Source: an uncultured archaeon (GTDB lineage Archaea > Asgardarchaeota > Lokiarchaeia > Sigyniarchaeales > SOKP01). From it: a DNA stretch of 64,000 bases. Location: assembly GCA_964486045.1 (NCBI GenBank), contig CAZALK010000002.1:1-64000 (forward strand), given 5' to 3'. Below are positions 36,312-45,851 of this stretch, in pieces. A model generated the notes under the pieces. The model saw only the letters and a program-made list of their open reading frames with translations. It was not told where the DNA came from and searched no databases. Positions within the stretch are counted from its first letter, which is position 1. Each line of letters opens with the position of its first letter. Both the position numbers and the translations under genes were made by a program.

Positions 36312-36421
36312 AGCCAGTGGTGGGATTTGCACCCACGATGCTGAATAGCAACGGCTCTGCGTCGGCTAAAACTTGTAAAAAGTTTTAAAGGCCGCCCCCT
36401 TAACTACTCGGGTACACTGGC
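36312..36421 (-). tRNA. tRNA-Cys(GCA) with a 28-nt BHB intron at 33/34 (36361-36388) and a long variable arm
   Basis: Acceptor GCCAGTG/CACTGGC, discriminator U; anticodon stem GCGGC/GCCGT; BHB (CT|T, CGGC/GCCG, AC|G) yields loop CT-GCA-GA; T stem GTGGG/CCCAC. Confidence 0.9.
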
Positions 36422-36563
36422 TAATCTTTATTAAGAATTCATCTTAACTATTTTATAAAACTTCTATAAATAAAAGAAATTCATTTAAAAATATATTATT
36501 TATGTGTTAAATACGATTAAACAAATAATTAAGTCATTTGAATTTCGCAGAAGATTTTTATGT

Positions 36564-36851
36564 TTATCCCCCTGCAATTGCTGGTATAAATGACAATTCA
36601 TCATCCAATTGAACTTTTGTTTCAATACCATTTAAAGATCTGATGTCTTTTCCATTTATAGTAATTATAACGTATTCACTGAGATTCGATGACGTTTTAT
36701 AAATCATTTCCTCAAATTTTTCCCCGAACTTTTTAGCCAAAATTTCCAAAACAGTTCTAATTGTTGAATTATCATCGATTGGTAGATCTAATTCCTCTAC
36801 TTCGGTAATATCTGTTAATAAAGATAAAAATACTATTTTAATATTAATCAT
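36564..36851 (-). CDS. MoaD/ThiS/SAMP ubiquitin-like sulfur carrier
   Basis: C-terminal PAIAGG; likely start ATG 36851. Confidence 0.88.
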   Translation of the reverse strand: MINIKIVFLSLLTDITEVEELDLPIDDNSTIRTVLEILAKKFGEKFEEMIYKTSSNLSEYVIITINGKDIRSLNGIETKVQLDDELSFIPAIAGG

Positions 36852-36997
36852 ATCAATCTTGTTTAAATTAGTTCTGCTTAAAATTTTAAATTTTTTATTA
36901 TCGGAAAAGTAATTAATTGAATTACCACTTAACATTATAATTATTGAATATTAATTTGTCTTTTACTTATATTAAATAAACAAAATCAGCGAATTTT

Positions 36998-37945
36998 ATG
37001 ACCGTAAATGAGTTAAATCTAGGTCACTTATCAACTGCGTACCACAGTAATTGGATTTTGATGGGAAATGATGAGTTAGAAAAAGCACTTGGGAAAAAAA
37101 TAAAGTGGCATTTGTTCGGTACCGGTCCATTAATGGTAGAAGCTTTTAATAAGGGTAAGTTAGATATCGGTTATATGGGATTACCCCCTGCAATAATTGG
37201 AATAGATGACGGAGTACCAATAAAATGTGTTTCCGGGGGTCACGTTGAAGGAACAATTGTGATTGGTAAAAAAAACCATCAGACCATTTCACAACTAAAT
37301 GACGATATGTACAGAGTCCTTATACAATTTAAAGGATGTACAATAGGGACTCCTAGTGTTGGCTCTATACATGATGCAATTTTAAATTATTACCTAGAAA
37401 AATATGATTTGAAAGAAGATATCAAAGTTAAAAATTATAAACAGGCAGAATTTATAGCTATAGACATGAAAAACGGGATTTTAGAAGGAGGGGTAGGAAC
37501 TCCTGCATTAGTTGTTTTTGCTAAGACTATTTTAGATTCTCATCTAGTTGTTCCGCCAAATTATTTATTACCAAATAACCCTAGTTATGGAATATTTTTT
37601 CATGAGAATTTAATCGAAAATAATCCAGATTTTGTTTTAAAATTCCTTGAACATCATAAAAAAGCTTCCCATTTACTCAGAAATTCACAAGATGAAGCTG
37701 CAGAGATTATTTCAAACACTTTTACAATTCTGAATAACAATACGCAATATGCTAAATCTGTACTTGAAATTTCACCAAAATATTGTATCGCACTTTCGGA
37801 AGGATATATAGAATCAACTGAAGGTTTCGTAAGTACAATGCATAAATTAGGGTATATTAATAAAAAGCTAACAACTGAAAAAATTTTTACCTTTGATTTT
37901 GTCAATAAGGTGCATCCGGAAAAAGAACACTATTCTCAAATATAA
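36998..37945 (+). CDS. NitT/TauT/Thi5-like substrate-binding-fold protein without a signal peptide
   Basis: FGTGP.M.EAF..G.LDIGYMGLPPAI and IGTPSVGSIHD motifs. Confidence 0.8.
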   Translation: MTVNELNLGHLSTAYHSNWILMGNDELEKALGKKIKWHLFGTGPLMVEAFNKGKLDIGYMGLPPAIIGIDDGVPIKCVSGGHVEGTIVIGKKNHQTISQLNDDMYRVLIQFKGCTIGTPSVGSIHDAILNYYLEKYDLKEDIKVKNYKQAEFIAIDMKNGILEGGVGTPALVVFAKTILDSHLVVPPNYLLPNNPSYGIFFHENLIENNPDFVLKFLEHHKKASHLLRNSQDEAAEIISNTFTILNNNTQYAKSVLEISPKYCIALSEGYIESTEGFVSTMHKLGYINKKLTTEKIFTFDFVNKVHPEKEHYSQI

Positions 37946-37964
37946 ACAAGATTAATAAAGTGTG

Positions 37965-38330
37965 TTATAAAGAAAAAATTAGTTGTCCCTCTTCCTGATA
38001 CTCAAGCAATAAATCCGCAACTTTAAAAGATTGAACCAACTCGATCCCGTCAATTAGCTCTGATTTATCCAACCCAATAATGCTAGCCGCCAAATCGCAG
38101 CACCTAAATTTAACTCCCAATTCGATACACTCCACCACTTCATCGTCATATTGCATTCTCCCCTTTTTATTTTTTTTTCCCAGGAGAATTCCCATTGGCC
38201 CCCACAACACTACAGTAACTTCAAGCCCTCTACTTCTGTAATATTTAGCAAAACGTATTGTTTCTAGCGGACTAGTTGATTCATAAATCATATGTTTTAA
38301 AAGTAATAATACTTTCGTAACTTTTCCCAT
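37965..38330 (-). CDS. DsrE-family sulfur relay protein
   Basis: DsrE pattern with GVKFRCC conserved Cys. Confidence 0.8.
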   Translation of the reverse strand: MGKVTKVLLLLKHMIYESTSPLETIRFAKYYRSRGLEVTVVLWGPMGILLGKKNKKGRMQYDDEVVECIELGVKFRCCDLAASIIGLDKSELIDGIELVQSFKVADLLLEYQEEGQLIFSL

Positions 38331-38537
38331 TTACTCAACTCCATGTTATCCTTACTATACTCTTAAATAATCTCTCTTAATAATTGCGAAATTCATGTAA
38401 TTCTTATGATATTATAAACCAAATTTAAATTTTTCTGTAATAACTATTAAAATTGAGTTGAAAATAAGTTCATTCGGAAAATTATCTGAATTAAACCTTT
38501 TATTAGTAATTTTTGCATTTATTTATTTTATGTTAAA

Positions 38538-39467
38538 TTATGCTTTAAACAAGTCGGTTGTTAAATATCTTTCTCCTGTGTCGGGTAAAATAGTAACAAT
38601 GTTTTGCTCTGAATTAAATTCTTTATGCACAACATTTAAAGCTGCCCACGAAGCTGCGCCAGCCGATATACCAACAAATATTCCTTCTAATTTAGCTAAA
38701 TTTCTTGCAGTTTCTGCTGCATCCTCATATTTGACTTTGATTATACAATTATAAATTTCAGTATTTAAGACATCTGGCACGAATCCAGCACCAATACCTT
38801 GAATTTTATGCGGTCCTGGTTGACCTCCAGATAAAACAGGAGAATCTACAGGCTCTACTGCAAAGATTCTAACTTGTTCTCCAATTTTTTCTCTAAGAAT
38901 TTCTCCAACTCCCGTGATTGTACCACCTGTCCCTATTCCAGAAACAAAACCATCAACTTTATTATCTAAATCTTCTAATATTTCTAAAGCAGTAGTTGTT
39001 CTATGAATTTCAGGATTAGCTTGATTTTTAAACTGTTGAGGAATAAATACTTTATTATTATCTTTAGATAATTCTTCTGCTTTTTGAATTGCTCCTTTCA
39101 TTCCACCTGAAGCCGGTGTTAAAACTAATTCTGCTCCATATGCCTTTAAAATCTTCCTTCTTTCTATTGACATACTTTCAGGCATAGTCAAGATTAATTT
39201 ATAACCTTTAACAGCACAAACTAAAGCTAACCCAATTCCTGTATTTCCTGATGTAGGTTCAACAATTATCGTTTCTTTATTTATAATTTTTGCTTTTTCG
39301 GCAGCATCTATCATAGCCATGCAAATTCTATCTTTAACGCTCGAACCAGGATTAAAAGCTTCTATTTTAGCATAAATAGTTGGTTCAATATCTCTTGCTA
39401 TTCTATTTAATTTTACTAAGGGTGTCCTTCCTATGGTCTCGATTACATTCTTGTATATTCTTCCCAT
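38538..39467 (-). CDS. cysK: Cysteine synthase A
   Basis: NPGSSVKDR, EPTSGNTG, GIGTGGT, HKIQGIG. Confidence 0.95.
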   Translation of the reverse strand: MGRIYKNVIETIGRTPLVKLNRIARDIEPTIYAKIEAFNPGSSVKDRICMAMIDAAEKAKIINKETIIVEPTSGNTGIGLALVCAVKGYKLILTMPESMSIERRKILKAYGAELVLTPASGGMKGAIQKAEELSKDNNKVFIPQQFKNQANPEIHRTTTALEILEDLDNKVDGFVSGIGTGGTITGVGEILREKIGEQVRIFAVEPVDSPVLSGGQPGPHKIQGIGAGFVPDVLNTEIYNCIIKVKYEDAAETARNLAKLEGIFVGISAGAASWAALNVVHKEFNSEQNIVTILPDTGERYLTTDLFKA

Positions 39468-39503
39468 TGTTTATCATATGTTTTTTATTGTAATAAAAAT
39501 GTC

Positions 39504-39526
39504 TAGTTAATAAGTCAAGAAGACAA
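39504..39526 (-). promoter_or_regulatory. Candidate Rrf2 operator just downstream of the cysK TATA box
   Basis: TTGTCTTCTTGACTTATTAACTA; 19/23 identical to the site at 40082. Confidence 0.6.
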
Positions 39527-39588
39527 GTTTTAAAAATGTTTTTTTTATAACATATATGAAGGTATCGAAATGAATCTAGAGGTAAAAT

Positions 39589-40002
39589 ATGAAAATATTC
39601 TCTGAAAAAATTAAGTATGGTCTTGCAGCTTTATTTGAATTGGCAAAAAACCACAATACAGGGCATATTCAGATAAAGGATATCGCAGAAGCTCAAAATA
39701 TTCCTCAGAATTATTTAGAACACCTCCTCATTAAATTAAAAGAATCGAATCTTGTTGAAAGTATTCGAGGTAGCAAGGGAGGTTATAAATTGAAGTTACC
39801 CCCTAATTCAATAAAGGTTCTAAATGTTATTGAGAGTTTAGAAGGTAACATTACTGTTTTTGAAAATCAAGAGATGAATGAAACTTTAAACATTTATTGG
39901 GATAAAATTAAAGCTAGTTTTAGAAATATATTTAACACTACTTTAGATGACTTAATTAATGAAGATGATATAATCCATAAACGTTTATTTTTTCAGATAT
40001 AG
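39589..40002 (+). CDS. Rrf2-family regulator (CymR-like, no Fe-S cysteines)
   Basis: IAEAQNIPQNYLEH...SIRGSKGGYKL; no Cys. Confidence 0.9.
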   Translation: MKIFSEKIKYGLAALFELAKNHNTGHIQIKDIAEAQNIPQNYLEHLLIKLKESNLVESIRGSKGGYKLKLPPNSIKVLNVIESLEGNITVFENQEMNETLNIYWDKIKASFRNIFNTTLDDLINEDDIIHKRLFFQI

Positions 40003-40081
40003 CTAAAGAGTTTGTGAAACAAGTTCATCTAGGTTTAGAGTTGTGGTTATATAAGAAATTTTAAAAACAAAAAGTTTAAAA

Positions 40082-40104
40082 TTGTCTTCATGATTAAGTA
40101 ACTA
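40082..40104 (+). promoter_or_regulatory. Candidate Rrf2 operator just downstream of the sat TATA box
   Basis: TTGTCTTCATGATTAAGTAACTA directly after AAAAGTTTAAA. Confidence 0.6.
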
Positions 40105-40159
40105 TAGATTAAAATTTCGTATTGTTGAGTATACAAGTAAAGATTAACGAGGGAATAGA

Positions 40160-41326
40160 ATGGCTATAAATGGTAATATACCGAACCCACATGGGGGAAG
40201 ACTCATTAATAAAGTCATGTCTGATAAGGAAAAAAACAAGATTCTCGGTCAAATTTCTGAATTCGATAAAATTATAATAGATTCAGAAACCTGGAAGGCT
40301 GTTAAAAATATATGTTTTGGAGTTTTTAGTCCTTTAGAGGGTTTTATGATTGAAAACGAGATGGAAAGTGTGTTAAATAATATGAGGTTAGAAAACGATA
40401 TTCCTTGGCCCTTTCCTATAACATTAGACATTAGTAGTGAGAAAGCAGAGAAAATTAGAATTGGGGATAGTGTAGTATTAACCACTAAGTCAGGATCCAT
40501 AATCTCATTATTGAGAGTAAATGATATTTACCATTATGATAAAAAAAGTTTAGCAGAAAAAGTTTACGGTACATTAGATCGCAACCATCCAGGAGTTGAC
40601 AAAGTTTTAAATCAGCAAGATATACTAATTGGAGGAGACCTCTTCTTAATAAATGAACTCCCGGCTATTTTCCCAGAATTAGATCTAAAACCAATTGAAA
40701 CAAGAAAAATTTTTAATGAAAGAAATTGGAAAAAAGTCGTAGCATTTCAAACAAGGAATCCCCCACATAAGGGGCATGAATATGTTCAAAAAACAGCCCT
40801 TACGCTTGCCGATGGACTTTTTATCAACCCAGTAATTGGTAAGAAGAAACCAGGAGATTTTTTGGATGAAGTTATAATAAGAGCTTATCAAGAATTGATA
40901 AAAGAATATTATCCTGAGCATCGAGTCTTATTAAGTACTTTTGAGACAGAAATGAGATATGCTGGACCTAAAGAAGCTATTTTTCATGCTATTGCTAGGA
41001 AAAACTTTGGTTGCAATTTTATTATTATTGGGAGAGACCATGCTGGAGTAGGAGATTTCTATGATCCCTTTGAGGCTCACAAAATCTTTGATGAATTCCC
41101 AGATTTGGGGATTGAGCCTATTTTTTTCAGATCATTTTCATTATGTAAGGTATGTGAAGACATTGTAAACGATAAAACATGTCCCCATTTACCAGATTGT
41201 CATACAAATTTTAGTGGCTCTGATATCAGGAATCTACTCTGTGCTGGTAAAGAACCACCCAGAGAAGTTATGCGGCCGGAAGTATCAAAAATAATTTTAG
41301 AATATAAAAATCCATTTTCCGAATAA
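40160..41326 (+). CDS. sat: Sulfate adenylyltransferase
   Basis: AFQTRNPPHKGHE, MRYAGPKEA, GRDHAG. Confidence 0.95.
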   Translation: MAINGNIPNPHGGRLINKVMSDKEKNKILGQISEFDKIIIDSETWKAVKNICFGVFSPLEGFMIENEMESVLNNMRLENDIPWPFPITLDISSEKAEKIRIGDSVVLTTKSGSIISLLRVNDIYHYDKKSLAEKVYGTLDRNHPGVDKVLNQQDILIGGDLFLINELPAIFPELDLKPIETRKIFNERNWKKVVAFQTRNPPHKGHEYVQKTALTLADGLFINPVIGKKKPGDFLDEVIIRAYQELIKEYYPEHRVLLSTFETEMRYAGPKEAIFHAIARKNFGCNFIIIGRDHAGVGDFYDPFEAHKIFDEFPDLGIEPIFFRSFSLCKVCEDIVNDKTCPHLPDCHTNFSGSDIRNLLCAGKEPPREVMRPEVSKIILEYKNPFSE

Positions 41327-41362
41327 GAGACTTTAATTTTTAAAATAAAGAGGTAAAAAATT

Positions 41363-42103
41363 ATGACATTAGATATTGAAAATATCAGAATTGATAATGT
41401 AAAAGAAAACATCGAAAAACTTAATGAAGAATTTAAGGTGATGAGCTCAAAAGATATTTTAAATTGGGCTTTTAAGACTTTTGGTGAGAGAATTGTATTA
41501 GCAAGCAGTTTAGGCTTAGAAGACCAAGTATTAACTGATCTATCTGTGAAATTATTCTCAAAAGTTCGGGTTTTTGTATTAGATACTGGAAGACTCCACC
41601 AAAAAACTTATGATGTACTTGAAGAAAGTATGGAAAAATACCACATTAAATATGAGATACTATTTCCTAAACTTGAGGATGTACAAGCTCTAGAAGAAGA
41701 ACATGGTCCTAACCCTTTTTACAAATCTTTGGAATTGAGGCATCGTTGTTGTAGAATTAGGAAAGTAGAACCATTACGGAGAGTTTTAAGTCGCTATGAT
41801 GCATGGATCACAGGACTTAGGCGAGCTCAGTCTGTTACAAGAACTGAAGTTAAGAAGCTAGAATGGGATGATGTAAACAATATAATCAAACTTAATCCGC
41901 TTTCAGATTGGACTGATAAGGAAGTAGAAGATTACATTTACGAAAATGATACCCCTTATAATAAATTATTCGATGAAGGCTTCACCAGTATTGGTTGTGC
42001 TCCATGTACTCGACCTACAAAAGTTGGTGAGCATCCTAGAGCAGGTAGATGGTGGTGGGAGAATCCTGAAAAGAGAGAATGTGGATTACATGAAAGTCAT
42101 TAA
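41363..42103 (+). CDS. cysH: Fe-S APS reductase (CysH family)
   Basis: LDTG, CCRIRK, GCAPCT, ECGLH. Confidence 0.93.
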   Translation: MTLDIENIRIDNVKENIEKLNEEFKVMSSKDILNWAFKTFGERIVLASSLGLEDQVLTDLSVKLFSKVRVFVLDTGRLHQKTYDVLEESMEKYHIKYEILFPKLEDVQALEEEHGPNPFYKSLELRHRCCRIRKVEPLRRVLSRYDAWITGLRRAQSVTRTEVKKLEWDDVNNIIKLNPLSDWTDKEVEDYIYENDTPYNKLFDEGFTSIGCAPCTRPTKVGEHPRAGRWWWENPEKRECGLHESH

Positions 42104-42161
42104 TTAAAATTAGAATTTTTTTTATTTTTATTTTGAATTATACTAAGAGAATGATTATCGA

Positions 42162-42941
42162 ATGTCTGAAGCTTTCATATACTTACAAATAACAGTTGGT
42201 ATAATCGCGTTTGGGAGTGCGCTAATTAATTCATTTGCCGGTGGCGGGTACGGCACCCTAGCAACACCTTTTTTATTATTTACAGGATTGGAGCCAATTC
42301 AATTTATCCCATCAATATTATTGAGCCATGGTCTTGTTAGTTTATTTTTGATAATAAAAGTTCGTCGAAATCCAGAACGCATAGGGATCTGTGAAGTAAA
42401 TGAATGTGTATATGAAAAGACAACGTTAAAGTATATTCTCTCATTCGGTATATTAGGATTAATTTTATCTTTTCTGGTAATGACCTTTTTAAATAGTTTT
42501 TTTATAAAGTTATATATTGGGGTATTAACTGTCTTTTTAGGAGTTCTCCTTCTATTTTTTAGGAAGAGGCAATTTTTATATTCCCGCAAAAAGATAATTG
42601 GTACATCTATAGTTGCCGCATTTAATAAAGGAATTACTGGTGGAGGATATGGGAGCATTATTTCTTGTGGTCAAATATTTTCTGGAATTGATTGTAAAAA
42701 AGCAGTCTCGACATGTTTTCACGCAAATACGGTTATTAGTTTGTTAGGTTTTGCATTTTATGTCATCCTTCTCCAAAATTTAATCACCTTTGAAATTACA
42801 ATTCCGATGGTTATTGGTGCTTTGTTAGCTGTCCCTGTCGCTGTGAAATCATTGGAAAAGGTCACAAGTTTCAAATTAACAATGATAATAGGATTATTAT
42901 TAATAATAATAGGAGTTTTTACATTTATTCAATTATTTTAG
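42162..42941 (+). CDS. TauE/SafE (TSUP) sulfur-compound permease
   Basis: Two GGGYG repeats and multiple TM helices. Confidence 0.88.
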   Translation: MSEAFIYLQITVGIIAFGSALINSFAGGGYGTLATPFLLFTGLEPIQFIPSILLSHGLVSLFLIIKVRRNPERIGICEVNECVYEKTTLKYILSFGILGLILSFLVMTFLNSFFIKLYIGVLTVFLGVLLLFFRKRQFLYSRKKIIGTSIVAAFNKGITGGGYGSIISCGQIFSGIDCKKAVSTCFHANTVISLLGFAFYVILLQNLITFEITIPMVIGALLAVPVAVKSLEKVTSFKLTMIIGLLLIIIGVFTFIQLF

Positions 42942-42977
42942 AGATTTTGGAAAACTGAGAAAAATGAGAGAAATCAA

Positions 42978-43985
42978 ATGAAGTTATCAATAAAAAATGA
43001 GAAAAACAGGGCATTACCATTAGATAATAAACTAAAAGTCTATAATAACATAGAAGAGTTAATATCATCATTAGATAATCCAACACCAATAGTAAAACTA
43101 AATGAAAGGATTAATCCTAACCATAGATTCCTAATTTATTTAAAATTAGAACGATTTAATCCATTTGGATCAATTAAAGATAGAATAGCTCTATTAATGA
43201 TAAATAATCTTGATCTTAGAGAAAATAAGACAATATTAGAGCCTTCATCAGGAAATACGGGTATCGCATTAACTGCTATAGCAAATTCAAGAGGAATTCC
43301 TATTGAAATAGCTGTGCCTAGTAGGATCCCAGAGGAGAAAAAATCCCTCCTACGATTTCTTGGAGTTGATTTATTATGGGAGGCTGAAGATGAATTATGT
43401 CCAGCATACCCTAATGAAGGTGCGAGAGGTTTGGTGAATGGTATCCTTGAAAGTGCAGGAGGAGAGAATTATTCGAGTCCAAATCAATATGAGAATAAAC
43501 TAAATGTACTAGCACATTATCACACTACTGGACCTGAGATATGGAAGCAAACAAGAGGGAAAATTGAATATTTTTTTTCGGGTTTAGGAACGTGTGGTAC
43601 AATCACTGGAGTAGGGAAATATCTTAAGGAAAAAAATCCTTCCATAAAGATAATCGGGATAGAACCAGACGTTCCAAATCATAATTTACCAGGAATGAAA
43701 AGAATTACGAACCTCAGAGAAGATTATATTCCAAAAATCTTAAATAAAAACGTAATTGATAATATCATAGAAATTGATGATGATACAGCGTATAGGACTG
43801 GGATAGAAATAGCACGGAAGACCGGAATATTAGTTGGTCCAACAACGGGTGCTATAGTCGCGGGGGCATTAGAATATTCAGAACTATCAGAGGGAATAGC
43901 AGTATGTATCTCTCCGGATGATGCCTTTAAGTATATGAGTTCATATGCTTCTTACGTAAAAGATGATGGTAAATTAATACTTTAA
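42978..43985 (+). CDS. Second PLP-dependent cysteine synthase family enzyme (CysM/O-phosphoserine sulfhydrylase-like)
   Basis: NPFGSIKDR, EPSSGNTG, GLGTCGT; lacks the CysK HKIQGIG motif. Confidence 0.85.
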   Translation: MKLSIKNEKNRALPLDNKLKVYNNIEELISSLDNPTPIVKLNERINPNHRFLIYLKLERFNPFGSIKDRIALLMINNLDLRENKTILEPSSGNTGIALTAIANSRGIPIEIAVPSRIPEEKKSLLRFLGVDLLWEAEDELCPAYPNEGARGLVNGILESAGGENYSSPNQYENKLNVLAHYHTTGPEIWKQTRGKIEYFFSGLGTCGTITGVGKYLKEKNPSIKIIGIEPDVPNHNLPGMKRITNLREDYIPKILNKNVIDNIIEIDDDTAYRTGIEIARKTGILVGPTTGAIVAGALEYSELSEGIAVCISPDDAFKYMSSYASYVKDDGKLIL

Positions 43986-44066
43986 GGAAATTAGAATTTT
44001 TATTAAAGTGAAAGTAAATACAATCGTGCTTAAAGGAAGATTACAAATATAAAAAGGTGTAAAAAA

Positions 44067-45569
44067 ATGACAAATGATGACATCCTTCGATTTGTAGGAA
44101 GATATTCACTGGGTCGAGACAGTAATCCAAGGAATTATAAGGATTCACTTCATTTTTTAAGATTTAAAGTGCCTGGTGGCTTTATTTCTTCTGAACAATT
44201 ACGAGGAGTAGCAGAGCTAACACAAAAATTTAGTCAAAATTTAGCAGAAATAACTGATAGAGAAGATATTCAACTACATTGGGTAAGATCGGAAGATTCT
44301 ATGGAGATATTTAAAATAATGGAAAATTTAGGGTTTACTACAGATATGTGTGGTCAAGGTTTTGGTGGAGCAAGATATGGTGATGCCCGAAATATTATTT
44401 TATGCCCAGCCTCCGGTATAGAGAAGAATGAGCTAATAGATGGTAGACCTCTTATGGAGAAACTGACAAAATTTCTTATTGGAAACCCAGATTTTCTAGA
44501 TATGCCTAAAAAGTTTAAGTTTTCAATCTCAGCTTGCGGTTCTGATTGTGTAAGAGGCATAACAAATGATCTTGCTTACGTTGGAGTGAAGAAAGGAGAT
44601 GATATTGGCTATACACTTTTTATTGGAGGGAGTGCTGGGAGTACTCAACCAGGTCCTAGGTTAGCAAAACGATTAAATGTGTTTGTAAGACCAGAAGATG
44701 CATTTGATGTAGGTATTGCGATGATAAAAATTCATAGAGATCATAGTAATCGTGAAACTAAAGTCAAAGCCAGATTTAAATGGTTGGTCAATGAATGGGG
44801 TGCTAAAAAGATCCAAAGTATGGTGGAAGAAAAGCTTGGAAGAAAATTTGAATTCTTTGACGGTCCGGCGTTCACAGAAAATAGTAATCATGAAGGAATT
44901 CATCCACAAAGTCAAGAAGGAAAATATTATATCAATGTTCCTATTCAAGGAGGTAGATTGTCCAACGATGAGATGATTTTTTTTGCAGATCTCGCAGATA
45001 ATTATGGATTGGGTGAATTAAGGTTAACTCCTACTCAAAATATTATAATACCTGATGTTAAAGATAGAACAGAAGTGGTAAAAGTCCTTAGTGAAAAGAA
45101 TTTTTCTATGGAAGGTCCAAATTTAAAATGGTCAAGTATTGGATGCTCTTCTGATTTTTGTGGAAAAACTATTGAACCCCACGTCAAACAAATAACTGCT
45201 GATTTAGTTAATTATCTAATTAGAAATTTTAAACTCGAATTACTTAATGAGTCAGGTATAATTATTCAGGCTAATGGATGTCCAAATCACTGTTGTGCTA
45301 GCAGTCTATCTGAGATCGGTTTGAGCGGTGTAGTCGTTAAAATTGAAGGAGAACCAATACAAACATACAATATCGTGTTGGGAGGCGGAGTCGGTCCTGA
45401 TGCGATTTTAGGGAGAGTAATAGAAAGAATTATCCCTCATAATCAAATAAATGAGAAGATTGCTTCCTTGATCAATAATTACATTACGATTAGGCAAGAA
45501 TCTGAAAGATTTCGAGATTTTTGTAACCGCTTTTCAGAAGAAGAATTAATGAATTATCTAAAAGTGTAA
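44067..45569 (+). CDS. sir: Ferredoxin-type sulfite (or nitrite) reductase, siroheme/[4Fe-4S]
   Basis: TDREDIQLH, PKKFK, RLTPTQN, CSSDFC...GCPNHC; sulfur-gene context. Confidence 0.88.
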   Translation: MTNDDILRFVGRYSLGRDSNPRNYKDSLHFLRFKVPGGFISSEQLRGVAELTQKFSQNLAEITDREDIQLHWVRSEDSMEIFKIMENLGFTTDMCGQGFGGARYGDARNIILCPASGIEKNELIDGRPLMEKLTKFLIGNPDFLDMPKKFKFSISACGSDCVRGITNDLAYVGVKKGDDIGYTLFIGGSAGSTQPGPRLAKRLNVFVRPEDAFDVGIAMIKIHRDHSNRETKVKARFKWLVNEWGAKKIQSMVEEKLGRKFEFFDGPAFTENSNHEGIHPQSQEGKYYINVPIQGGRLSNDEMIFFADLADNYGLGELRLTPTQNIIIPDVKDRTEVVKVLSEKNFSMEGPNLKWSSIGCSSDFCGKTIEPHVKQITADLVNYLIRNFKLELLNESGIIIQANGCPNHCCASSLSEIGLSGVVVKIEGEPIQTYNIVLGGGVGPDAILGRVIERIIPHNQINEKIASLINNYITIRQESERFRDFCNRFSEEELMNYLKV

Positions 45570-45584
45570 AATAGGTGATAATAA

Positions 45585-45851
45585 ATGTCAGGAAACCAGA
45601 TAAAATTGCAAAAAATTGATGATAATCTTTACGAGTTAGATGTGCGGGGACTTGTGTGCCCATTTCCACAAGTTATGGTTACAAGAGCATTAGTAGACAT
45701 GGAAGAGGAAGAAGTCTTGGAAGTAATTATTGATAATCCACCTTCTATTAGAGATATCCCCCTAGCTTTAGAGAGAAAAGGATATAAATCAGAGGTAATA
45801 AAAGTCGATAAAATCACATCTAAAATCGTAATTCAAGCAAAAAAGGAATAA
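45585..45851 (+). CDS. tusA: TusA-family sulfurtransferase
   Basis: LDVRGLVCPFP; SD AGGTGA. Confidence 0.9.
   Translation: MSGNQIKLQKIDDNLYELDVRGLVCPFPQVMVTRALVDMEEEEVLEVIIDNPPSIRDIPLALERKGYKSEVIKVDKITSKIVIQAKKE

Follow-up and report, generated by a model that had tools for sequence, protein, structure and literature searches.

The window, which is the whole stretch of DNA that we analysed (64,000 nucleotides of contig CAZALK010000002.1), carries a gene for tRNA-Cys with the anticodon GCA on its minus strand. The host genome belongs to Promethearchaeota (Lokiarchaeia), has a size of 5.18 Mb and is 99% complete, and the sequencing runs that contain the stretch are marine sediment metagenomes. 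The gene and its parts were assigned as follows.

36312..36421, minus strand: tRNA-Cys(GCA) gene, 110-nt precursor body, 82 nt when spliced, CCA not encoded
36389..36421, minus strand: 5' exon with the 5' strand of the acceptor stem, D arm, 5' strand of the anticodon stem, C32 and U33; abuts the 3' exon in intron-less orthologues
36361..36388, minus strand: 28-nt intron at position 33/34 with a relaxed bulge-helix-bulge motif (BHB, form HBh'); assigned from its absence in intron-less orthologues and from the BHB geometry
36312..36360, minus strand: 3' exon with G34-C35-A36 (36360-36358), G37, variable arm, T arm, 3' strand of the acceptor stem and U73 (36312)
36337..36350, minus strand: 14-nt variable region with a 4-bp stem TGCT/AGCA, loop ATTC, then UC; assigned from the minimum free energy (MFE) fold and covariation
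36404..36405, minus strand: A18-G19 of the D-loop, where GG is usual; assigned from orthologue comparison
36330, minus strand: G55 of the T-loop, where U or pseudouridine is usual; the T-loop TGCAAAT occupies 36325-36331
36451..36460, minus strand: TTTTATAAAA, resembling a TATA box and lying 30-39 nt before the mature 5' end; read from the sequence

Sulfur-assimilation and cysteine genes form a block (window positions 36564-45851) with the tRNA-Cys gene at one end. Of these genes, the MoaD/SAMP-like one lies 143 nt upstream of the tRNA gene, and cysK is about 2.1 kb away. This block encodes the MoaD/SAMP-like protein, an SsuA-like binding protein, a DsrE-like protein, CysK (445 bits), an Rrf2 regulator, ATP sulfurylase (sat), an APS/PAPS reductase, TauE, a second CysK/M-like enzyme, sulfite reductase and TusA. 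Within it, cysK is divergent from the gene of the Rrf2 regulator, and the presence of a MoaD-like carrier near cysteine synthase recalls, by analogy, protein-thiocarboxylate-dependent cysteine synthesis. Upstream of the tRNA-Cys gene, the element TTTTATAAAA has a putative TATA-box function. We found that the MoaD and SsuA neighbours are retained beside tRNA-Cys in nine genomes of the same genus, and that in other parts of the family tRNA-Cys has cysS as its neighbour. An earlier note, made from the letters of the window, had placed the gene at the head of a cysteine-biosynthesis cluster. This holds in part, as to its position at one end of a sulfur and cysteine block; the linkage is real and lineage-specific, but nothing in it points to a functional role.

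The Rfam tRNA model RF00005 matched the minus strand from 36421 to 36312 with 46.2 bits (E 1e-6; gathering score 29). Our covariance model R1, trained on nine intron-less orthologues of this tRNA-Cys, scored the gene at 91.6 bits and gave a strong tRNA-Cys match in 150 of the 151 genomes sampled from the class. ARAGORN with default settings reported zero tRNAs in the window. When introns were allowed (-i), it called the gene tRNA-Stop(tta) with a 20-nt intron. Across the genome, ARAGORN -i put introns at wrong positions and gave spurious Stop and Pyl anticodons, and it was therefore not used for tRNA identity. The intron-bearing tRNAs at contig 1:126761, 527548 and 626229 and at contig 5:9034 were likewise labelled tRNA-Stop(tta) or tRNA-Pyl(cta); the loop of the tRNA at contig 1:527548 is CUUUUAA, that of Lys (UUU). 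Such labels seem to result from introns put in the wrong place and do not seem to indicate suppressors.

Intron position and splicing motif

Read on the minus strand, a 35-nt stretch occupies the place of the 7-nt anticodon loop. When the 110-nt gene was used as a BLAST query on 60 related genomes, three matches covered its full length. In at least nine genomes of the same genus, query positions 1-33 and 62-110 were contiguous, giving intron-less genes of 81-82 nt whose 7-nt anticodon loop, CU-GCA-GA, is that of the spliced window tRNA. Because the exons abut in these orthologues, the intron comprises nucleotides 34-61 of the pre-tRNA (36388-36361) and lies between positions 33 and 34. The orthologues thus give exact borders to the 33/34 intron that the earlier note had proposed. 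An intron at this position splits the loop just 5' of the anticodon and therefore hides the anticodon from standard tRNA finders. A 37/38 intron with the anticodon UUA was also considered and ruled out, as neither helix nor bulge supports such a splice.

The central helix of the BHB is CGGC/GCCG, paired at 4/4 bp, with the 3-nt bulges CU|U and AC|G and an inner helix of 8 bp. The outer exon-exon helix has only 1 bp, short of the 2 bp or more of the strict hBHBh' form, so the motif is a relaxed HBh' and not the 'perfect' BHB that had been described before. Two orthologous introns of 28 and 34 nt, whose sequences are divergent and whose inner helices have 5 and 12 bp, retain the same BHB geometry. 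The true introns of this tRNA-Cys gene in the family range from 12 to 35 nt and are variable in sequence. Family-wide, they occupy at least five positions (near 9, D loop, 33/34, 37/38 and T loop), and some tRNA-Cys genes have two introns at once (loci including L097, L103-L105, L115, L122, L141 and L144).

The host genome encodes two EndA-family proteins (PF01974; 102 and 67 bits). They fit what an alpha/beta-type splicing endonuclease requires, as candidate subunits; PMC5829648 names the alpha/beta-type and epsilon-type endonucleases as those that cleave non-canonical introns. Non-canonical tRNA introns are abundant in other Asgard lineages (PMC11291895). Compared with the non-canonical BHB introns of Thermoproteales and Asgard archaea (PMC4090602; PMC11291895), the intron described here shares the HBh' form at a position other than 37/38, two EndA-family genes are likewise present, and we found no essential difference.

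Variable arm and elbow of the mature tRNA

The MFE fold of the mature 82-nt sequence is a cloverleaf with an extra hairpin, TGCT-ATTC-AGCA. The body has a 7-bp acceptor stem, U8, A9, a 5-bp anticodon stem, a 5-bp T stem and a discriminator U, and the D stem consists of 3 bp and a G13.A22 mismatch. G1-C72, U73 and GCA were invariant in all orthologues, U73 having been checked in 100 of them. Both U73 and GCA are established Cys identity elements, and U73 is the major determinant for CysRS (PMC9976931). The Cys identity given to the gene in the earlier note holds; GCA stands in the spliced loop.

We aligned 100 orthologues to the covariance model and found that 99% of the cells pair. Double-sided changes occurred in 16 of the 24 pairs, compared with 7.9 +/- 1.2 in shuffles (none of 500 shuffles attained the observed value), and the signal was lost when the partners were slid. 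As the alignment was fitted to its own model, these values carry some bias in favour of pairing, and a small independent MAFFT alignment agrees with them. All five helices showed compensatory changes. In the helix of the variable arm, 97.5% of the cells pair and double-sided changes were found in 3/4 pairs; a UA pair of this arm is replaced by CG in 8 distinct sequences of relatives. This degree of pairing, together with the compensatory changes, identifies the helix as a selected structural element. The fold and the covariation thus agree with the long variable arm, the 82-nt body and the 3-bp D stem that had been noticed earlier.

By its variable region of 14 nt with a 4-bp stem, the tRNA falls in class II (an arm of more than 10 nt that forms a stem-loop) and outside class I (a loop of 4-5 nt). 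It has the standard 7/5 cloverleaf, supported by covariation, and its GCA and U73 set it apart from Ser and Leu tRNAs, which combine a Ser or Leu anticodon with G73 or A73. With canonical archaeal class I tRNA-Cys(GCA) it shares GCA, U73, G1-C72, G37, the 7/5/5-bp acceptor, T and anticodon stems, G15/C48, the 13:22 mismatch of the D stem and a single copy for the UGY codons. It differs in having the 14-nt hairpin instead of 4-5 nt, A18/G55 instead of G18/Psi55 and an intron at 33/34 instead of 37/38. The arms of the class II tRNAs of the host (Ser, Leu) are alike in size and placement, with a 3-4-bp stem, a 4-nt loop and 1-3 unpaired flanking nucleotides. In contrast to them, the tRNA-Cys has U73 (tRNA-Ser candidates have G), GCA and a body orthologous to short-loop tRNA-Cys.

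A long variable arm combined with U73 and GCA is also known from the selC* tRNA-Cys of anaerobic bacteria (Mukai et al. 2017; review: PMC7609411). The selC* tRNAs have a tRNA-Sec-like 8/4 fold and a long D stem, are served by their own CysRS* without an anticodon-binding domain, and occur in addition to a normal tRNA. The window tRNA shares the arm, U73 and GCA with them, but it has a 7/5 fold, a 3-bp D stem and a full-length CysRS with a DALR domain, and it is the only tRNA-Cys found. Neither an 8/4 or 9/4 fold, nor an extended D stem, nor a dedicated CysRS* was found here.

The D and T loops of elongator tRNAs are linked at the elbow by the contacts G18-Psi55 and G19-C56. In the window tRNA-Cys, A18/G55 replace G18/U55, while G19 and C56 are retained and the T loop reads TGCAAAT. 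Genes with G55 had A at the first of the two D-loop 'GG' positions in 86/86 genomes, and genes with U55 had G there (GG or CG) in 28/28. Both elbow states occur within families f1 and f2. With no discordant case among the 114 typed genomes, the reciprocal change at 18 and 55 suspected in the earlier note is backed by phylogenetic covariation. We found no description of an A18/G55 elbow in the literature searched, which left out most subscription journals. Judging from these co-occurring sequence changes, A18:G55 is a candidate alternative tRNA elbow contact.

To place the arm among relatives, the tRNA-Cys arm and elbow were typed in 114 genomes of the class (G009, G013, G014, G018, G029, G105 and G142 were left untyped from their best model matches). 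The long arm, of 12-14 nt, was present in 51 of the 114 genomes, which belong to four genera and a second family (f4): most of the window genus g1, about two thirds of g20, parts of g22 and g23, and 3/3 genomes of f4. The remaining 63 have a short 5-nt loop, and these include species of the same genus (G030, G012, G089, G154) with a tRNA body that hardly differs in any other respect. Since the long arm occurs in 51/114 genomes, its pairs covary, and A18 and G55 always appear together, the hairpin and the A18/G55 elbow are lineage traits under selection, not one-off changes. No description of a long-arm tRNA-Cys in Asgard archaea was found in the literature searched, again mostly without subscription journals. 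That the arm might be normal for the lineage had been raised in the earlier note, and it is the genome data, not a published description, that make it so.

A third form of tRNA-Cys was observed in genus g1 (L179-L186, L355, L356, L369). It has a short loop, the D loop GAGTCGTAA, the T loop TTCAAAT and one or two introns, and its carriers are intermingled with long-arm species near the tips of the LeuRS tree. This pattern suggests gene replacement or reciprocal loss of paralogues.

Charging enzymes and alternative readings

In the 99%-complete host genome, no second tRNA-Cys was found by RF00005, by R1 (next match 36 bits) or by three scans of our own for the acceptor/T arm and the GCA loop. 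Not all tRNAs of this genome, which is rich in introns, have been recovered: ARAGORN and Rfam together give only about 30, so a second tRNA-Cys with a disrupted T arm or split halves may have escaped. A BLAST search of the host genome with three canonical 'type B' tRNA-Cys genes of f4 gave only a 17-nt match, at contig 3:232541-232557 (L178:742-758). The matching nucleotides are those at the 5' end of the canonical f4 gene, and a GC-rich hairpin comes after them. A 3' half to go with them was found nowhere in the genome, and Rfam gave no tRNA match at the site. The stretch could be a tRNA fragment or a chance match.

The host encodes one full-length CysRS (496 bits) with the catalytic domain and the DALR anticodon-binding domain. 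No SepRS was found in the genome (best match 68 bits, PheRS-like, versus a cut-off of 381), and no SepCysS (best match 31 bits versus 365). Charging by SepRS, one of the routes offered in the earlier note, is not supported for this host. CysRS is present in 131 of the 151 genomes of the class, and in many genomes of the family cysS adjoins tRNA-Cys, whether the tRNA has the long arm or the short loop. Comparison of the host enzyme (G000 contig 1:46736-48148, L055) with that of G015 (L028:1652-3088) separates two CysRS lineages with 39% identity to each other: the window genome has one, and the long-arm-rich genus g20 has the other. Because the long arm occurs with both lineages, there is no arm-specific CysRS. 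The idea of a special CysRS is not supported, given this, the ordinary full-length enzyme of the host, and the 5-nt loops carried by near-identical bodies in the same genus. Both CysRS lineages coexist in the genus, and one of them is usually found directly beside tRNA-Cys; G015 and G020 carry both, and the host has only the unlinked one. Outside the phylum, the nearest relatives of the host-type CysRS are in DPANN, Bathyarchaeia and bacteria, with 40-52% identity.

We conclude that this is very probably a housekeeping tRNA-Cys, apparently the sole one, which is spliced, keeps its arm and is charged by the canonical CysRS, the arm being a tolerated variant of the lineage. On this reading the precursor would be transcribed, the splicing endonuclease would cut the 28-nt intron out between U33 and G34 at the relaxed BHB, and the exons would be ligated. 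Ligation would restore the loop CU-GCA-GA, and CCA would be added afterwards. The mature 82-nt tRNA would retain the class-II-like hairpin and the A18/G55 elbow contact. The single canonical CysRS would then charge it directly with cysteine via U73 and GCA, and the tRNA would read UGU and UGC. The extra arm would thus be a heritable, structurally constrained variant tolerated by CysRS, with no new identity and no recoding.

Could the hairpin instead be a second, very short intron or a processing element, leaving an ordinary class I tRNA? The lineage does place introns at the many positions of tRNA-Cys given above, and sister species carry a 5-nt loop at the very site of the hairpin. However, the insert exceeds the short form by only 8-9 nt and has a loop of 3-4 nt, which is too small for two 3-nt bulges and a 4-bp helix, and its sequence and length (TGC...GCATC, 12-14 nt) are conserved across genera, whereas the true introns vary from 12 to 35 nt. 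For its shortness, its loop of 3-4 nt and its conserved sequence the hairpin cannot be a BHB intron, and we regard this whole explanation as quite improbable. A different proposal, also contained in the earlier note, is that SerRS charges the long-arm tRNA and that Ser-tRNA-Cys is converted by PSTK and a SepCysS- or SepSecS-like enzyme. As the arm is about as long as that of the host tRNA-Ser (15 nt), some recognition by SerRS would be possible on sequence alone, and enzymes of the Sec pathway exist in the host: SepSecS (contig 15:139056-140357, 494 bits), with the tRNA-Sec gene 1.1 kb upstream, and a single PSTK-like gene (contig 1:35108-35857) that aligns over its full length with 141 bits, below the 290-bit cut-off. 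Against this stand U73, where all tRNA-Ser candidates seen in the host end in G73, the absence of SepCysS, the presence of a full CysRS, and the fact that the sole tRNA-Cys would have to carry all cysteine decoding. The 7/5 body and 3-bp D stem are also nothing like the tRNA-Sec served by PSTK and SepSecS (contig 15:137829-137921), whose fold is 9/4, whose D stem has 7 bp and whose discriminator differs. Serylation with conversion on the tRNA is therefore highly improbable. The reading of the gene as an ochre-suppressor-like tRNA with anticodon UUA goes back to the tRNA-Stop(tta) call of ARAGORN -i, and it is refuted by the missing BHB for that splice and by the GCA of the intron-less orthologues. 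Against a decaying pseudogene, purifying selection acts on all five helices, in which the 100 orthologues show compensatory changes, and to a suppressor or a pseudogene we assign next to no probability.

The SepRS route among relatives

A further explanation would extend the tolerated-variant reading without excluding it. On this view SepRS would need a class I tRNA-Cys and the long-arm form would be a substrate of CysRS only; the arm might partition tRNA-Cys away from the SepRS/SepCysS route, or persist only after the loss of that route. SepRS was scanned in the same 151 genomes as the tRNA-Cys model. In family f1, SepRS was absent from 45 and present in 3 of the 48 long-arm genomes, and absent from 20 and present in 32 of the 52 short-loop genomes. 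The naive odds ratio, which ignores kinship, is 24, and the direction is the same in g1, g20 and g22. In one of the three SepRS-positive long-arm genomes of f1, SepRS is present only as a fragment containing an in-frame TAG. All three f4 genomes, which have SepRS, CysRS and the long-arm A18/G55 tRNA-Cys, keep a second, canonical class I tRNA-Cys (GTCGGGG...CCCCGGCT; L156 of G041, L164 of G043, L165 of G039) with GG/UUC elbow motifs. The counts also contain exceptions: 20 SepRS-negative f1 genomes are nonetheless short-loop, and in G129 and G134, which are 72-74% complete, a full SepRS and so far only a long-arm tRNA-Cys were found. In G143, a genome with long-arm tRNA-Cys, a SepRS fragment of 276 bits that contains an in-frame TAG is found at the edge of a contig (contig 13:4-870) and is perhaps a gene in decay.

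When kinship was taken into account, the association weakened. The LeuRS search scored 72 of the 151 genomes, and the tree was built from 67. This tree requires at least 11 changes of arm state and 6 of SepRS. Among 8 independent pairs that differ in the arm, SepRS differed in the same direction in 2-3, in the opposite direction in 0 and not at all in 5-6, and the tree-corrected sign test was non-significant (p ~0.25). The LeuRS of the host (contig 21:37802-40612, L279), together with those of G028 and G013, forms a long separate branch outside the other family members. By its placement it looks like a xenologous replacement, and for this reason LeuRS may not track the species tree. The link between arm and SepRS is thus suggestive and not established, and partitioning by the arm, or its persistence after loss of the route, is in our view an unlikely account, although clearly less so than the explanations rejected above.

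A mechanistic rationale for this idea can be inferred from published work. A variable-loop determinant of SepRS, A47, is named in PMC9976931, which also cites dual tRNA-Cys isoacceptors in Methanosarcina mazei, preferred either by SepRS or by CysRS. The f4 genomes are similar in having SepRS, CysRS and two distinct tRNA-Cys, whereas the host has one tRNA-Cys and no SepRS. A tentative and rather unlikely proposal for Lokiarchaeia would be that the extra arm marks a CysRS-only tRNA-Cys that class II SepRS cannot use. The arm would then be able to spread only in lineages that have lost the phosphoserine route or that, like f4, keep a second canonical tRNA-Cys for SepRS.

Long variable arms are the mark of Ser, Leu, Sec and bacterial Tyr tRNAs, and G18-Psi55 is near-universal. 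This Asgard family breaks both textbook rules in an essential tRNA-Cys. Standard finders miss or mislabel the gene, which may lead to false reports of absent tRNA-Cys or of recoding in Asgard genomes; we found no pointer to an altered genetic code. Orthologues with and without the arm on near-identical bodies, two CysRS lineages and a patchy SepRS together offer a natural test of the tolerance of class I and class II synthetases for an extra arm. If the proposal on SepRS were true, one amino acid would be served by two structurally insulated tRNA/synthetase channels, and A18:G55 would be a previously undescribed elbow pair.
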